From IMG/VR virus record IMGVR_UViG_2529293078_000007: a stretch of 5,365 nucleotides of DNA. The stretch is one strand, 5' to 3'. Under the pieces are notes generated by a model. That model searched no databases and was not told where the DNA came from. It saw only the letters and a program-made list of their open reading frames with translations. The stretch is from a virus. Taxonomy: Duplodnaviria > Heunggongvirae > Uroviricota > Caudoviricetes. Position numbers and translations under genes: made by a program. Positions 1 to 5,365 of this stretch are shown here, in pieces; the stretch's first letter is position 1, and the number at the start of each line of letters is the position of its first letter.

Positions 1-287
1 CTGTGACTGCGCATACGGGCCACCAGCAGAGGCGGCATTGCCTTTTCGATCGCCGGTAACAGAGCCTGCATTTTTTCAACTGCATCAGGGGTGTCTTTCT
101 CTATCCAGCGGAAAATTTTCTGGGTATTGCGAGCCAGGGCTTCCGGATGGCTGTCGTCGTACAGTTCAGGAAACGTCATACCCAACTCAAAATAAGCCTG
201 GGTTATTCCAGCTGCCGGAACTTTTTCGCCATCAGGACGCGCCCAGGCATTCATCGCCATGCGGATGTGTTCATGCTTGATTTTCAT
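1..287 (-). CDS. YdaT-like prophage regulatory protein (PF06254-type), partial; start codon at 287-285, runs off the window start
   Basis: Minus-strand frame is open from ATG (plus 285-287) to position 1 with no stop. Strong SD AAGGGGGG about 5 nt upstream (plus 293-300). N-terminus MKIKHEHIRMAMNAWARPDGEK... recalled as typical of YdaT-family proteins that follow cro-like genes in Rac-type prophages. The + strand ORF 38..280 is its antisense shadow. Confidence 0.5.
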   Translation of the reverse strand, partial: MKIKHEHIRMAMNAWARPDGEKVPAAGITQAYFELGMTFPELYDDSHPEALARNTQKIFRWIEKDTPDAVEKMQALLPAIEKAMPPLLVARMRSH

Positions 288-513
288 GAATCCCCCCTTG
301 GTTAGAAGGCGGATTATGATCAGAATCGGGAATGACAACCGTCGGTATGTGTAACTCATATTTGAGCGCCCCGGCAGTGACTGCCTGAATTAGCAACGCC
401 CATTTCCACGGAACGTCTTCCCCCCACATGCTGACTGTGGTTTTTGACGTTCCTAGAGCGGCGGCTGTTTTAACAACTCCGCCAAAATAGCCTAATACTT
501 CTGATTTTTTCAT
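271..513 (-). CDS. dicC: Cro/DicC-like small DNA-binding regulator, 80 aa
   Basis: Start chosen at ATG 513-511 (MKKSEVLGYFGG...) because GGAG lies 6 nt upstream; the track's start at 561 has no SD. Pattern YFGG..K.A.ALG....VS.W..D.VP...A.L.Q..T.G.L.Y resembles DicC as remembered. Divergent from the repressor gene. Its 3' end overlaps the YdaT-like start by 17 nt. Confidence 0.65.
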   Translation of the reverse strand: MKKSEVLGYFGGVVKTAAALGTSKTTVSMWGEDVPWKWALLIQAVTAGALKYELHIPTVVIPDSDHNPPSNQGGIHENQA

Positions 514-1307: not shown

Positions 1308-1329
1308 AATGTTTTGATAAAAAAACATT
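1308..1329. promoter_or_regulatory. Operator-like palindrome AATGTTTTgataaaAAAACATT (second copy of TGTTTT-N6-AAAACA)
   Basis: Perfect 8-bp inverted arms with a 6-bp spacer. Core and spacing are identical to the 588-605 site. Lies directly against the -35 of the predicted promoter downstream of the repressor gene. Confidence 0.4.
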
Positions 1330-1356
1330 GACCTTAAATGTTCGTTTTTCTAAACT
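1328..1356 (+). promoter_or_regulatory. Candidate sigma70 promoter (PL-like) for the ydfA-like operon
   Basis: TTGACC (1328-1333), 17-nt spacer, TAAACT (1351-1356). Sequence-only prediction. Confidence 0.35.
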
Positions 1357-1535: not shown

Positions 1536-1688
1536 ATGGATACGCTCAATCTTGGCAACAACGAATCTCTGGTATGTGGCGTGTTCCCCAACCAGGACGG
1601 TACGTTCACCGCGATGACGTATACCAAAAGCAAAACGTTTAAAACTGAAGCTGGCGCGCGTCGCTGGTTAGCCAGAAACACTGACTGA
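1536..1688 (+). CDS. ydfA: YdfA-like small prophage protein (DUF1391-like), 50 aa
   Basis: ATG 1536 has GAGG 5 nt upstream, whereas the upstream in-frame ATG 1455 has a poorer SD and would give 77 aa. MDTLNLGNNESLVCGVFPNQDGTFTAMTYTKSKTFKTE... matches Qin YdfA as remembered, in the same position after the repressor. Stop TGA 1686-1688 overlaps ATG 1688 of the next frame. Confidence 0.55.
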   Translation: MDTLNLGNNESLVCGVFPNQDGTFTAMTYTKSKTFKTEAGARRWLARNTD

Positions 1689-1699
1689 TGAGGTTGACG

Positions 1700-2338
1700 A
1701 TGGAATTTAAAGATTTACCTCCTTCAATCCAGGAGATTGCAGCACACACACTTCGTCATCGTCTGAACGAACTTGAATTGGAATCGGTAACGAAAAAAGA
1801 CACTGATAATATGGCTCGTAATGTGCGCGATGCGTTTACCGGATTGTATTTCTGTGCGTCTATAAATAAACACGACTCAGAGAGTGTGGCAAATAAAATT
1901 GCAGAAACGACAGCGCAAAACATCAATACGAAACCAACGGAAGAAGAAATTGATCAGTTTGCTCATGATGCTGGTTTAAAAAACAAGAAAGAAAAATCGC
2001 CATATGCGGGGAACATGTTTGTTTATGACAATCTCATCAGAATTCGTGGCGAAATTCCGGCGGAATACCTGGCAAGAGTCCATCAGGCATTGCTTAAAAA
2101 TTTGGAAACAGAATTATTTGATGGCAACACTAACGGTTTCTTCATGGTATCAGGCCTTGAGAAAGACTGGGATGCAGAAAAACGCTGGAATGTTGCTACA
2201 TGGTTATTCAGTAACAGAGCCGCTGCACTGGAAGCTTCGGCATGTATTTGCGGCCTGTTCTTAACAGACCACAAATATAATCTGGATGTGTACAGTTATA
2301 TTTACGCTGAACACGGTCCACTCTGGATTGACTGGTAA
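1700..2338 (+). CDS. Hypothetical protein, 212 aa, no recognisable domain (alternative start 1688 would give 216 aa)
   Basis: Long ORF with GAGGT 5 nt upstream of ATG 1700. The alternative ATG 1688 overlaps the ydfA-like stop (TGATG). No Walker, HEPN, nuclease or transmembrane signature recognised by eye. Confidence 0.6.
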   Translation: MEFKDLPPSIQEIAAHTLRHRLNELELESVTKKDTDNMARNVRDAFTGLYFCASINKHDSESVANKIAETTAQNINTKPTEEEIDQFAHDAGLKNKKEKSPYAGNMFVYDNLIRIRGEIPAEYLARVHQALLKNLETELFDGNTNGFFMVSGLEKDWDAEKRWNVATWLFSNRAAALEASACICGLFLTDHKYNLDVYSYIYAEHGPLWIDW

Positions 2339-2548
2339 TTATAAGGAAACACCAGCAGGGCCGCGGCGACCAACAGAACGATTAAAATCAATAATGCCAT
2401 TATAAAGGACATTATTTAATTTATCGTCGAATGCTGATTCTGTGAGCCTCAACTCTGAATGAGTTTTTAATAACCCTGATTGCCTGAGTTGATTTACCAG
2501 GCATTCAATCTGTTTTTCAATAAGCGGATTTCTTTTTTTGTTTGGCAT
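2339..2548 (-). CDS. Hypothetical small protein, 69 aa, convergent with the 212-aa gene
   Basis: ATG at 2548-2546 is preceded by GGAGGAT (plus 2553-2559). The track's start at 2560 is the ATG inside that SD. Stop abuts the stop of the + strand gene (TAATTA, 2336-2341). Uses rare codons (AGA, AGG, TTA); no homolog recognised. Confidence 0.35.
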   Translation of the reverse strand: MPNKKRNPLIEKQIECLVNQLRQSGLLKTHSELRLTESAFDDKLNNVLYNGIIDFNRSVGRRGPAGVSL

Positions 2549-2579
2549 TTTATCCTCCATTGAGGTTCTGGGTTAAAAA

Positions 2580-2885
2580 TGGAGACCAACACGCTGTCAC
2601 GTGTGGTCGTGCGCCGGACACGGATAAGAATCCGGTACTGACAGTTTACTGAAAGGATATTTCCCTGAAAAGTCAGTGCATAACGCGAAAGCGTACGGCG
2701 AAGCTCTTTCCCTTAGAAGGCTTGTCGTTAGATTTCTTCGAACGTGCGCTTCCGGTTGTGGCACTCCGCGAAATGGCGCGGCGGTAAGTATGGCGGGGTT
2801 ATTCCTTCCCCATTGAGGACACCGGGTTGTCAGGTTGACCATACGCTTAAGTGACAACCCCGCTGCAACGCCCTCTGTTATCAAT
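2580..2885 (+). other. GC-rich, hairpin-dense non-coding region upstream of DicF (possible dicF precursor or separate structured RNA)
   Basis: No + strand ORF longer than about 20 aa. Nested hairpin CTGTCA (2594-2599)/TGACAG (2639-2644) enclosing CCGGA (2614-2618)/TCCGG (2631-2635). GNRA hairpin ACGC-GAAA-GCGT (2683-2694). Perfect 9-bp stem GGGTTGTCA (2824-2832)/TGACAACCC (2852-2860). The 95-aa minus ORF here has non-protein-like composition. Confidence 0.3.
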
Positions 2886-2943
2886 TTTCTGGTGACGTTT
2901 GGCGGTATCAGTTTTACTCCGTGGCTGCTCTGCCGCCCTTTTT
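2886..2943 (+). ncRNA. dicF: DicF-like small regulatory RNA (ftsZ-targeting antisense sRNA), including its 3' terminator
   Basis: tttctggtgacgtttggcggtatcagttttactccgtggctgctctgccgccc followed by TTTTT matches E. coli DicF as recalled. It sits immediately upstream of the dicB-like gene as in Qin. Ends are approximate (a few nt either way). Confidence 0.7.
2901..2943 (+). terminator. Intrinsic terminator-like element (3' end of DicF)
   Basis: GGCGG (2901-2905) and CCGCC (2932-2936) flank an internally paired region, followed by a T5 run (2939-2943). Confidence 0.45.
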
Positions 2944-3112: not shown

Positions 3113-3301
3113 ATGGAAACGTCATTACCAAACGTTAATACGTCTGAAGGTTGTTTTGATATTGGTGTTCTGCTCAGTAACCGGGAGTTTACTGAAGATG
3201 CCATTAACATGAGGAAATATGAGCCTTATCTGCTCAATGATAATTCCATACTTTCCCGAATTGCTCTTCTTGAACTTGGTATTTTCGGAGAACGTCAATG
3301 A
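3113..3301 (+). CDS. dicB: DicB-like cell-division inhibitor, 62 aa
   Basis: METSLPNVNTSEGCFDIGVLLSNREFTEDAINMRK... closely matches the remembered Qin DicB N-terminus (..LPNVNTSEGCFEIGV...FTEDAIN.RK), with the same 62-aa length. GAGGA lies 7 nt upstream of ATG 3113. The track ORF 3008..3301 is an in-frame upstream extension without an SD. Confidence 0.8.
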   Translation: METSLPNVNTSEGCFDIGVLLSNREFTEDAINMRKYEPYLLNDNSILSRIALLELGIFGERQ

Positions 3302-3486
3302 CTTCAGCATTTGCACTGATGATGACGGTTTTTCTTATAACGGGTGAATCACAGAATGTGATTACCGGAATTTATGCCAGTAAAGAATCCTGCCTCCAGG
3401 CAAGAGACGAGCAAAAAATTTCTGGTGAATGCCTCCCGGTAAAAAAAGTATCGCTGTACCTGAATAACGAAACACCGGCTGGATAA
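3298..3486 (+). CDS. ydfD: YdfD-like small protein with hydrophobic N-terminus, 62 aa
   Basis: ATGA start/stop overlap with dicB (3298-3301) and GGAG 6 nt upstream. Hydrophobic N-terminal segment MTSAFALMMTVFLITG. Same size and position as Qin YdfD downstream of dicB. Confidence 0.6.
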   Translation: MTSAFALMMTVFLITGESQNVITGIYASKESCLQARDEQKISGECLPVKKVSLYLNNETPAG

Positions 3487-4823: not shown

Positions 4824-5365
4824 TAATCAGAAGAAATCTGGCAAAAGACCGTTTTACAGTACCAAAAACACAGGCGGGAACCAATCGTGTGATTCACCTT
4901 ATTAAGCCCGCAATCGACGCTCTCCGGAGTCAGATGGCACTAACGAGACTGAGCAAAGAGCATATCATCGATGTTCACCTCAGAGAATTCGGCAGAACAG
5001 AGAAACAAAAATGTACCTTTGTTTTTCAACCTGAAGTGTCAGCGAAAGTAAAAAATTATGGCGACCATTTTACCGTTGACTCAATAAGGCAGATGTGGGA
5101 CGCAGCGGTAAAGCGTGCCGGAATCCGCCATCGCAAATCGTATCAGTCGAGACACACTTATGCCTGCTGGTCGTTAACAGCAGGAGCTAACCCGGCATTC
5201 ATTGCAAACCAGATGGGCCATGCAGATGCGCAAATGGTGTTTCAGGTGTACGGGAAATGGATGTCAGAAAATAATAATGCGCAGGTAATGAACCGCCCCG
5301 GGTTTCCTGGAGAGTGTTTTATCTGTGAACTCAGGCTGCCAGATCATCGTTTCCGATGGAAGCAT
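4820..5365 (+). pseudogene. Tyrosine recombinase/integrase, C-terminal catalytic-domain fragment (intQ-like, lacks the N-terminal half), continues past the window end
   Basis: Frame is open from the stop at 4784-4786 to the window end. First ATG 4820 overlaps the stop of the upstream gene (ATGA). Integrase catalytic motifs are present: beta-hairpin Lys region FTVPKTQAGTNRVIHL, Arg-His in SRHTYA (about 5150-5164), MGHAD, and the catalytic Tyr in QVYGKW (5249-5251). No Box I arginine region or N-terminal DNA-binding domains exist in any upstream frame. Confidence 0.55.

Follow-up and report, generated by a model that had tools for sequence, protein, structure and literature searches.

A polymorphic convergent gene pair between ydfA and dicF in a Qin-type prophage: a possible effector-inhibitor cassette

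The 5,365-nucleotide (nt) window analyzed here, which is the whole stretch of Caudoviricetes DNA recorded as IMGVR_UViG_2529293078_000007 in IMG/VR and to which all position numbers refer at its full length, is a Qin/dicBF-type cryptic prophage segment. Between its ydfA-like gene and the small RNA (sRNA) DicF, it carries two convergent genes, one encoding a 212-amino-acid (aa) protein and the other, on the opposite strand, a 69-aa protein. The 212-aa open reading frame (ORF) is a genuine early-operon gene of this prophage and is under purifying selection, and its product is undescribed in databases and literature. The large gene is polymorphic, and almost every type of it is accompanied by its own convergent small gene. 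We tentatively propose, with a probability of about 40%, that the two proteins are a cognate antagonist pair, in which a binding effector expressed on induction would be countered by a convergent inhibitor, and that the two would be swapped together as a polymorphic conflict cassette. A sequence-only reading of the same DNA had singled out the 212-aa protein as a candidate for an exclusion, defense or host-manipulation function; it had passed over the convergent gene, the two-part structure of the large protein and the occurrence of the pair with another N-terminal domain in Salmonella.

The 212-aa gene is real and under purifying selection

The large gene is an uninterrupted ORF whose stop codon ends at 2338, annotated in RefSeq as a 212-aa hypothetical protein (Table 1). 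The product matches the PHROG profile phrog_2151, a family without an assigned function, over 212 of 212 positions (E = 1.9e-147), and its cluster at 100% identity has 973 members. Among 5.8 billion proteins, a word-indexed search returned 153 relatives, found in Escherichia or Salmonella only and either unnamed or called "Ybl81". When 1.84 billion cluster representatives were searched exhaustively with HMMER, 50 proteins were returned, including two remote relatives of the C-terminal domain. The protein had no Pfam (E up to 0.1) or NCBIfam match, and no PADLOC-DB 2.0.0 family matched it or the 69-aa protein at E up to 1. Searches of Pfam, NCBIfam, PADLOC and PHROGs with the 212-aa protein, the 69-aa protein and the other cassette types retrieved only PHROG families without a function. 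Likewise, no paper naming WP_000394548, WP_001133037 or Ybl81 was found in the literature library that was searched. The sequence-only reading had called the protein unrecognized, and these searches bear this out.

The same reading had given the span 1536 to 2338 for its observation and had described the 212-aa protein as coupled to ydfA through a TGATG overlap. The end of that span is correct, and its beginning takes in ydfA itself; the protein gene runs from 1700. The TGATG is present at 1686 to 1690, and its ATG would yield a 216-aa ORF. The start conserved across genomic contexts is the ATG at 1700, 11 nt past the ydfA stop, and the overlap coupling is therefore not real. A Shine-Dalgarno sequence (GAGG, GGGG or GGAGGG) lies 5 to 8 nt before this ATG, start and Shine-Dalgarno are kept after ydfA, ydfB or ydfC as well as in a Shiga toxin (Stx) phage, and all homologs open with MEFKDLP.

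The ratio of nonsynonymous to synonymous substitution rates (dN/dS) was about 0.2 for the whole gene and 0.16 to 0.22 for its C-terminal domain, values well below 1 among alleles separated by a dS of 0.3 to 0.6, and the ORF is intact in alleles as low as 67% identity and in Salmonella at 28%. These observations bear on the notion that the gene is a functionless relic, an ORF drifting in a defective prophage and widespread only through clonal lineages of Shiga toxin-producing Escherichia coli (STEC). The truncated RecE and fragmented integrase of the prophage, the presence of copies at least 99% identical in 513 complete E. coli genomes and the occurrence of frameshifted copies would all agree with such a relic. 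Against this, the low dN/dS at these distances, the intact ORF in distant alleles and the confidently predicted fold of the C-terminal domain make it very improbable.

A constant N-terminal module precedes an allele-specific C-terminal domain

The large protein is built of two parts. Its N-terminal module also matches phrog_1363, 9419, 6937 and 33007, is helical in the AlphaFold2 (AF2) model and heads dozens of short prophage proteins whose C-termini are unrelated; about 40 representative clusters have this module alone in common with the 212-aa protein. In about 275 E. coli genomes the match is confined to nt 1 to 153/156 of the large gene, which thus marks a sharp recombination junction at the module's end. 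N-module relatives in Stx phages lie in the early-left region, between recombination and accessory genes. A search of protein structures in the PDB by sequence returned Noc alone for the large protein (E = 0.02, 17 bits) and no match for the small one; a ParB/Noc DNA-binding identity for the N-terminal part was considered, and this helical, low-information alignment was treated as a chance match.

The C-terminal domain is strongly conserved inside the family, and its sole remote relatives are the Salmonella proteins, at 28% identity. Invariant polar residues are limited in it to Y109, Y123, D141, N145 and E178; conserved Cys, His, Ser, Lys or Arg residues are absent, and no catalytic motif was recognized. 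Because such residues are few and none belongs to these five kinds, the domain would fit better as a stoichiometric binding module than as an enzyme. When SUI1/eIF1-, ACT- and Prp-like folds were compared, weak matches were obtained to ACT, the ArgR C-terminal domain and SUI1. The large protein is acidic and soluble, with a net charge of -8 in its variable C-terminal part and no membrane segment (maximum Kyte-Doolittle 19-residue mean of 1.16).

The convergent partner follows the C-terminal type

The stop codon of the 69-aa gene (2339 to 2341) directly abuts that of the 212-aa gene. The small gene is preceded by a GGAGGA Shine-Dalgarno sequence 5 nt upstream of its ATG at 2548, and its product is basic (isoelectric point of 9.7, net charge of +3.6), has no membrane segment (maximum Kyte-Doolittle 19-residue mean of 0.22) and gave no Pfam or NCBIfam match. 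Compared with alleles at a dS of about 0.37, its dN/dS is 0.25. The strong Shine-Dalgarno sequences and PHROG membership of both genes argue for the reality of both. The large gene (at least 80% covered) was present in 568 of the 5,426 complete E. coli genomes and the small-gene segment in 597, so that the two co-occur almost 1:1.

When the window is aligned with Qin of E. coli K-12, two stretches match at about 90% identity, one ending with ydfA at about 1685 and the other beginning at about 2613 and covering the dicF leader; DicF, dicB and the ydfD-like gene are also about 90% identical. The 925 bp from 1688 to 2612, which hold the two convergent genes, cannot be aligned to the K-12 ydfB-ydfC segment and take its place, the 69-aa gene being half of the replaced segment; in BLASTP against YdfB and YdfC, the large protein had no match and the small protein only one at E = 3. 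The sequence-only reading had the 212-aa protein filling the ydfB/ydfC slot, after a YdfA-like gene and before dicF. Both neighbors are confirmed by their family matches (Table 1), and the slot is right for the window. Elsewhere, ydfA is followed by ydfB and/or ydfC and then by an N-module gene, and the cassette therefore sits after ydfC and is not its strict alternative.

To describe this variation, 80 IMG/VR loci retrieved via the N-module were analyzed jointly with additional loci fetched before, and cassette types were counted in the complete E. coli genomes. Besides type A, four C-terminal types (five if the related F and G are split) each have their own unrelated convergent small ORF (Table 2), and the partners of types B, C, D and F/G all overlap the 3' end of the large gene, by 12 to 131 nt. 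The small proteins of the cassettes are soluble and 63 to 99 aa long, partners of different types are mutually unrelated, and type mixing was never seen among about 80 loci. The genomes carried ydfC (3,065), type A (568), type B (152), type C (24) or type D (8, plus about 125 partial type-D matches). The slot varies while its flanks stay constant, a pattern that the sequence-only reading had raised for comparative genomics. The type-C N-module protein of 186 aa (NZ_OZ547217.1, 1338 to 1898) bears the name "RNA-binding protein" from the Prokaryotic Genome Annotation Pipeline (PGAP); no NCBIfam, Pfam or PDB support for this name was found, and it was set aside.

Table 1. Features of the 5,365-nt window, in order of position.
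Feature	Position	Strand	Basis
P22_Cro-like gene	271-510	-	
cI-like repressor, helix-turn-helix (HTH) and S24 peptidase domains, intact, 212 aa	605-1243		
Operator-like 19-nt palindrome TGTTTTGATAAAAAAACAT, abutting the -35 element of the early promoter-like site	1310-1328	.	Repeat search
Sigma-70 promoter-like site TTGACC-17-TAAACT, candidate dicBp/PL equivalent	1328-1356	+	Consensus scan; putative function
ydfA-like gene (DUF1391), first in operon	1536-1688	+	Pfam PF07151, E = 3.6e-30; aligns with K-12 ydfA
212-aa gene, whole coding sequence including stop	1700-2338	+	ORF; RefSeq WP_000394548.1; phrog_2151
Constant N-terminal helical module, aa 1 to about 52 (MEFKDLP...NVRDAFTGLY); left cassette junction	1700-1855	+	PHROG matches, clusters, AF2 helices
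Allele-specific C-terminal alpha+beta domain, aa 97-212 (beta-beta-alpha-beta-beta-alpha-beta)	1988-2335	+	
69-aa gene, WP_001133037.1, phrog_4274	2339-2548	-	ORF; annotation; PHROG E = 1.4e-51
Right cassette junction: small-gene Shine-Dalgarno, leader and hairpin (2584-2608)	2549-2612	.	Upstream-region alignment of all types and K-12
Conserved untranslated leader 5' of dicF, constant right flank	2613-2886	+	Alignment with K-12 Qin
DicF sRNA	2887-2938	+	Rfam RF00039, 75 bits
dicB	3113-3301		
ydfD-like gene (DUF1482), lysis	3298-3486		
RecE-family exonuclease, cut to N-terminal 414 aa	3579-4823		
Integrase fragments	4900-5365		

Table 2. Cassette types defined by the C-terminal part of the large protein.
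Type	Large protein	Convergent partner	Arrangement of 3' ends	Loci with partner
A	212 aa	69 aa, MPNKK...PAGVSL	Stops abut (gap 0)	38/43
B	112 aa	64 aa, MSEQELKLGACYC...	Overlap 12 nt (33 in one locus)	17/18
C	179/186 aa	80 aa, CPxC...CPxH	Overlap 20-44 nt	5/5
D	201 aa	63 aa, MTQEEKVMFLM...	Overlap 23 nt	4/4
F/G	147/129 aa	Related ...WTI[AS]QCRLM..DIRLAL... ORFs	Overlap 122-131 nt	3/5
E	124 aa	No clear partner		

The sequence 5' of the small genes is constant and continuous with the dicF leader, with the start region ATGGAGGATAAAATG in types A, B, C and G, and the variable block therefore extends from the end of the N-module to the small-gene start codon. Recombination junctions were found inside the large gene and upstream of the small-gene start, and never between both genes.

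The C-terminal domain also occurs in Salmonella, in prophages with a P2-type integrase-repressor-Cox switch, where its homologs lie directly after cox. These homologs have a different N-terminal domain, and one of them, P0140, adds an XRE-type HTH before the C-terminal domain. Behind each homolog lies a convergent ORF of 64 aa, which reaches 11 or 53 nt into the 3' end of that homolog, matches phrog_4274 (E = 1.5e-19) and shares 54% or 46% identity with the 69-aa protein (BLASTP E = 6e-23 and 1e-12). As the same small protein stands behind a different N-terminal domain, it tracks the C-terminal domain and not the N-module.

The Salmonella pair and the absence of a junction between the genes are the main arguments that the two genes would be functionally coupled. 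They are weighed here against the view that the large protein is a stand-alone early host-takeover or counter-defense protein binding one host protein, the 69-aa gene being an unrelated moron in a mosaic block. This view accords with an early-left operon that holds the host-directed DicF and DicB, the YdfD-like lysis protein and RecE, with the early-left position of the N-module relatives in Stx phages, and with an acidic, soluble large protein that lacks a catalytic motif; moreover, two adjacent segments in one mosaic block can co-vary by linkage alone, which also counts against a cognate pair. We nevertheless consider a stand-alone protein unlikely, since the pair persists over deep divergence and, in Salmonella, with another N-terminal domain, since in four further C-terminal types the large gene is overlapped at its 3' end by a convergent partner specific to that type, and since the junctions spare the space between the genes.

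Expected expression of the two genes

A gap of about 290 nt separates the end of the repressor gene at 1243 from ydfA, and it contains a promoter-like site flanked by an operator-like palindrome (Table 1). Related 19-nt palindromes lie at 542 to 560 and 588 to 606, between the cro-like and repressor genes; the three share a consensus of approximately TGTTTTGAT.AAAAACA and are candidate operators of the S24-type repressor. The position of the promoter-like site agrees with the K-12 operon model, in which the homologous transcript starts 5' of ydfA at dicBp, DicA represses it, the antirepressor Rem lifts this repression, expression turns on spontaneously in a subpopulation, and DicF is processed out of a polycistronic RNA (PMC10448788); the K-12 operon has also been described in PMC5069750. 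On the basis of the window sequence and this published K-12 work, the 212-aa gene is expected to lie in a repressed early operon, silent in the lysogen and switched on upon derepression.

The sequence-only reading had argued from position, by comparison with rexAB and sieB, that genes just downstream of a prophage repressor are a classic site for exclusion cargo. That argument does not carry over to this gene, because a promoter-like site and an operator copy intervene in the gap and would keep it out of the repressor co-transcript, in an operon expected to be repressed. Furthermore, the only terminator-like site between 1200 and 3150 is that of DicF itself (2921 to 2936), with none between the large and small genes. 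The operon transcript would therefore reach dicF and dicB by running antisense through the 69-aa gene.

A cognate antagonist pair, its weak points and its alternatives

Taken together, we infer that the two proteins interact physically, that they are expressed under opposite regimes, that the large one is the effector and that it has a target of its own. The large protein would be produced only upon loss of repression (by induction, spontaneous derepression or antirepression), and the small protein, encoded on the other strand, would act as an inhibitor specific to it. On its way to dicF and dicB the early transcript would cross the small gene antisense, and derepression would therefore at once increase the effector and reduce the inhibitor, flipping their ratio, and the freed C-terminal domain could then bind a host or rival-phage target. 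Pairs would be exchanged between prophages by recombination, with the N-module as the left-hand site and the dicF leader as the right-hand one, which would generate the polymorphic locus. The complementary charges of the C-terminal part and the small protein may be counted in favor of such a pair. A polymorphic paired architecture is usually that of conflict systems (exclusion, toxin-immunity or defense with self-immunity), and a conflict function, which this architecture makes more specific, is plausible here.

Several observations weigh against this reading. Neither protein resembles a known toxin, antitoxin or defense family, and type E has no clear partner. A consensus scan revealed no convincing promoter for the small gene, its sole minus-strand match lying inside the small ORF itself. 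Neither gene was found full-length among 50,697 deposited phage genomes, and the pair may therefore matter only in resident, often defective, prophages. The small gene is also interrupted at some loci: a run of seven T on the plus strand (2533 to 2539) corresponds to seven A in its codons 4 to 6, and a one-base length change in this run, found in 5 of the 43 type-A IMG/VR loci, leaves a truncated small protein of 17 aa. The 212-aa gene is intact beside a frameshifted small gene in 4 of the 43, so that, unless sequencing errors are responsible, the prophage can do without the small gene at least under repression of the operon. Pseudogene patterns did not single out either partner as the effector.

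Two side observations concern the small gene. Length changes in the A run could represent slipped-strand on/off variation or homopolymer sequencing error. A motif read by eye, TTTTCA-17-TAAACT at 2671 to 2643, was considered as a small-gene promoter and rejected, as it is also present in K-12, which is without the gene.

The polarity of the pair could also be the reverse, with the small protein made in the lysogen and blocking incoming phages, while the early large protein neutralizes it and spares the resident phage. The sieB-esc system of P22 and lambda and BstA-aba provide this logic of defense with self-immunity. A small gene placed opposite to the repressed operon could be expressed independently, polymorphic type-specific partners are what an arms race would give, and of all the explanations this comes nearest to the idea of the sequence-only reading. 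We regard it as improbable: the small proteins are soluble, only 63 to 99 aa long and without a PADLOC model match, the consensus scan gave no convincing promoter for the 69-aa gene, and about 10% of the sampled loci have a frameshifted small gene. In addition, in polymorphic systems of the contact-dependent growth inhibition (CDI) and Rhs type, the protein with a constant N-terminal and a variable C-terminal part is usually the effector, an argument by analogy only.

Somewhat less probable again is a regulatory pair, in which the C-terminal domain binds its partner or a ligand and both proteins tune the prophage switch or the processing or read-through of the dicF-dicB transcript. In the Salmonella protein P0140, the C-terminal domain follows an XRE-type HTH, where repressors have a sensor or oligomerization domain; the weak fold matches are to regulatory alpha+beta modules, and convergent transcription across the sole route to dicF and dicB would itself modulate them. 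Nevertheless, the E. coli protein has no DNA-binding domain by Pfam, its Noc/ParB match at E = 0.02 is not significant, at least five unrelated allelic forms would not be expected of a regulator of a conserved leader, and K-12 operates the operon without the cassette (PMC10448788).

Comparison with known systems

In the operons of pore-forming colicins, which are under SOS control, the colicin gene is followed by a convergent immunity gene and then by a lysis gene, and the immunity proteins are integral membrane proteins. The window resembles these operons in its promoter under an SOS-type repressor (here cI-like, with an S24 peptidase domain), in a putative effector and a partner that vary together and, as far as architecture only is concerned, in the order of the large gene (1700 to 2338, plus strand), the small gene (2339 to 2548, minus strand) and the ydfD-like lysis gene (3298 to 3486). 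It differs in that its small proteins are without membrane segments, its large protein has no translocation, receptor-binding or pore-forming domain, no colicin Pfam domain and no sequence similarity to colicins, and the genes reside in a prophage early operon and not on a plasmid. The pair departs from the colicin and toxin-immunity families in every testable defining feature except gene arrangement.

With the CdiA-CT/CdiI and Rhs-CT/RhsI systems it has in common a constant N-terminal part and a variable C-terminal domain separated by a sharp junction, a separate small neighbor gene for each C-terminal type, and exchange by recombination at conserved flanks. In contrast to those cassettes, the partner is convergent, abutting or overlapping, and not co-directional, and the proteins are small and cytosolic, without a secretion or delivery domain and without a recognizable toxin domain. 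As for type II toxin-antitoxin systems, these are co-transcribed as operons, whereas the genes of the window converge on abutting stops, and no Pfam, NCBIfam or PADLOC match places either protein in such a family.

Finally, the pair is like lambda rexAB and the sieB-esc genes of lambda and P22 in being accessory genes that adjoin a lambdoid immunity region, and the sieB-esc logic of exclusion plus self-protection would fit the reverse polarity discussed above. Unlike rexAB, co-transcription with the repressor would not be expected, given the intervening operator-flanked promoter and the repression of the K-12 homolog by DicA, and unlike RexB and SieB, the large protein has no membrane segment. 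It also matched no Pfam family at E up to 0.1 and no PADLOC model.

Genomic context of the cassette

The window is 99.85% identical to E. coli O157:H7 strain TR01, from which it differs by seven small indels over 5.3 kb, and many O157, O121, O111, O145 and O103 genomes carry an identical copy of positions 1400 to 2600, which take in ydfA, the small gene and all between them. Since RecE is truncated and the integrase is present only as fragments, this prophage copy is defective. Its operon has the same frame as that of K-12 Qin (ydfA-ydfB-ydfC-dicF-dicB-ydfD), and its repressor, cI-like with an S24 peptidase domain, is unlike the DicA of K-12. The repressor is intact here, whereas in TR01 (7506 to 7844) its C-terminal 113 aa alone are annotated, so repressor integrity varies between near-identical strains; that it has the same length as the large protein, 212 aa, is a coincidence. 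In some relatives, a RelB/RelE or HigB/HTH toxin-antitoxin pair lies between the repressor and ydfA (locus L007, 1450 to 1928; locus L012, 2007 to 2671), and this position is a second variable slot in the immunity region.

At the right edge of the cassette, a hairpin (2584 to 2608; about 2580 to 2603 in locus L002, about 6830 to 6855 in L004 and about 6078 to 6103 in L008) lies directly left of the invariant GTGCGCCGGACAC. At least four variants of its stem occupy the same position (ACCAACACG/CGTGTGGT, TTCTCCAC/GTGGAG, TTCCCG/CGGGAA and TTCCCAAC/GTTGGGGA), and five consecutive T come after it in the window when the minus strand is read. The hairpin gave no significant z-score when single sequences were folded. 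As it is kept in K-12, which is without the small gene, it is probably part of the dicF-precursor leader.

The leader itself (2613 to 2886; 6856 to about 7200 in L004), which contains the near-palindrome CTGACAGTTTACTGAAAGGATATTTCCCTGAAAAGTCAG at 2636 to 2674, shares blocks of 85 to 100% identity with Salmonella prophages that have a P2-type switch, and Rfam detected no DicF in those prophages. Thus, the leader element seems to have a role past the delivery of DicF. The Salmonella prophage at L004, which carries a C-domain homolog, also has a C4 antisense RNA (8582 to 8669, Rfam 76.8 bits), neighboring Phage_ASH or Derepression-family genes and a RecE-like exonuclease downstream. This prophage is thus of hybrid make-up, combining a P2-type switch with an immunity element of P1/P4 type and an early-left region like that of Qin.

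Significance

The dicBF operon is among the best-studied cryptic-prophage loci, and its copies in enterohemorrhagic E. coli (EHEC) affect division, metabolism, virulence regulation and phage resistance. What lies between ydfA and dicF has so far counted as a set of small unknown genes, and type A is present in about 10% of complete E. coli genomes, concentrated in STEC. If the pairing reflects linkage only, these results still offer a clean description of an orphan two-domain prophage protein. If the cassettes are indeed swappable cognate pairs, transcriptional access to DicF and DicB would differ between strains, as the transcript would cross an antisense gene, and the pairs could be a new effector-inhibitor family without sequence relatives. 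More broadly, and more doubtfully than the pairing itself, they may belong to an undescribed class of polymorphic convergent effector-inhibitor cassettes in enterobacterial prophage early operons, with the N-module and the dicF leader as swap handles and convergent transcription as the trigger, which would place phage-phage or phage-host conflict beside dicF and dicB in EHEC.

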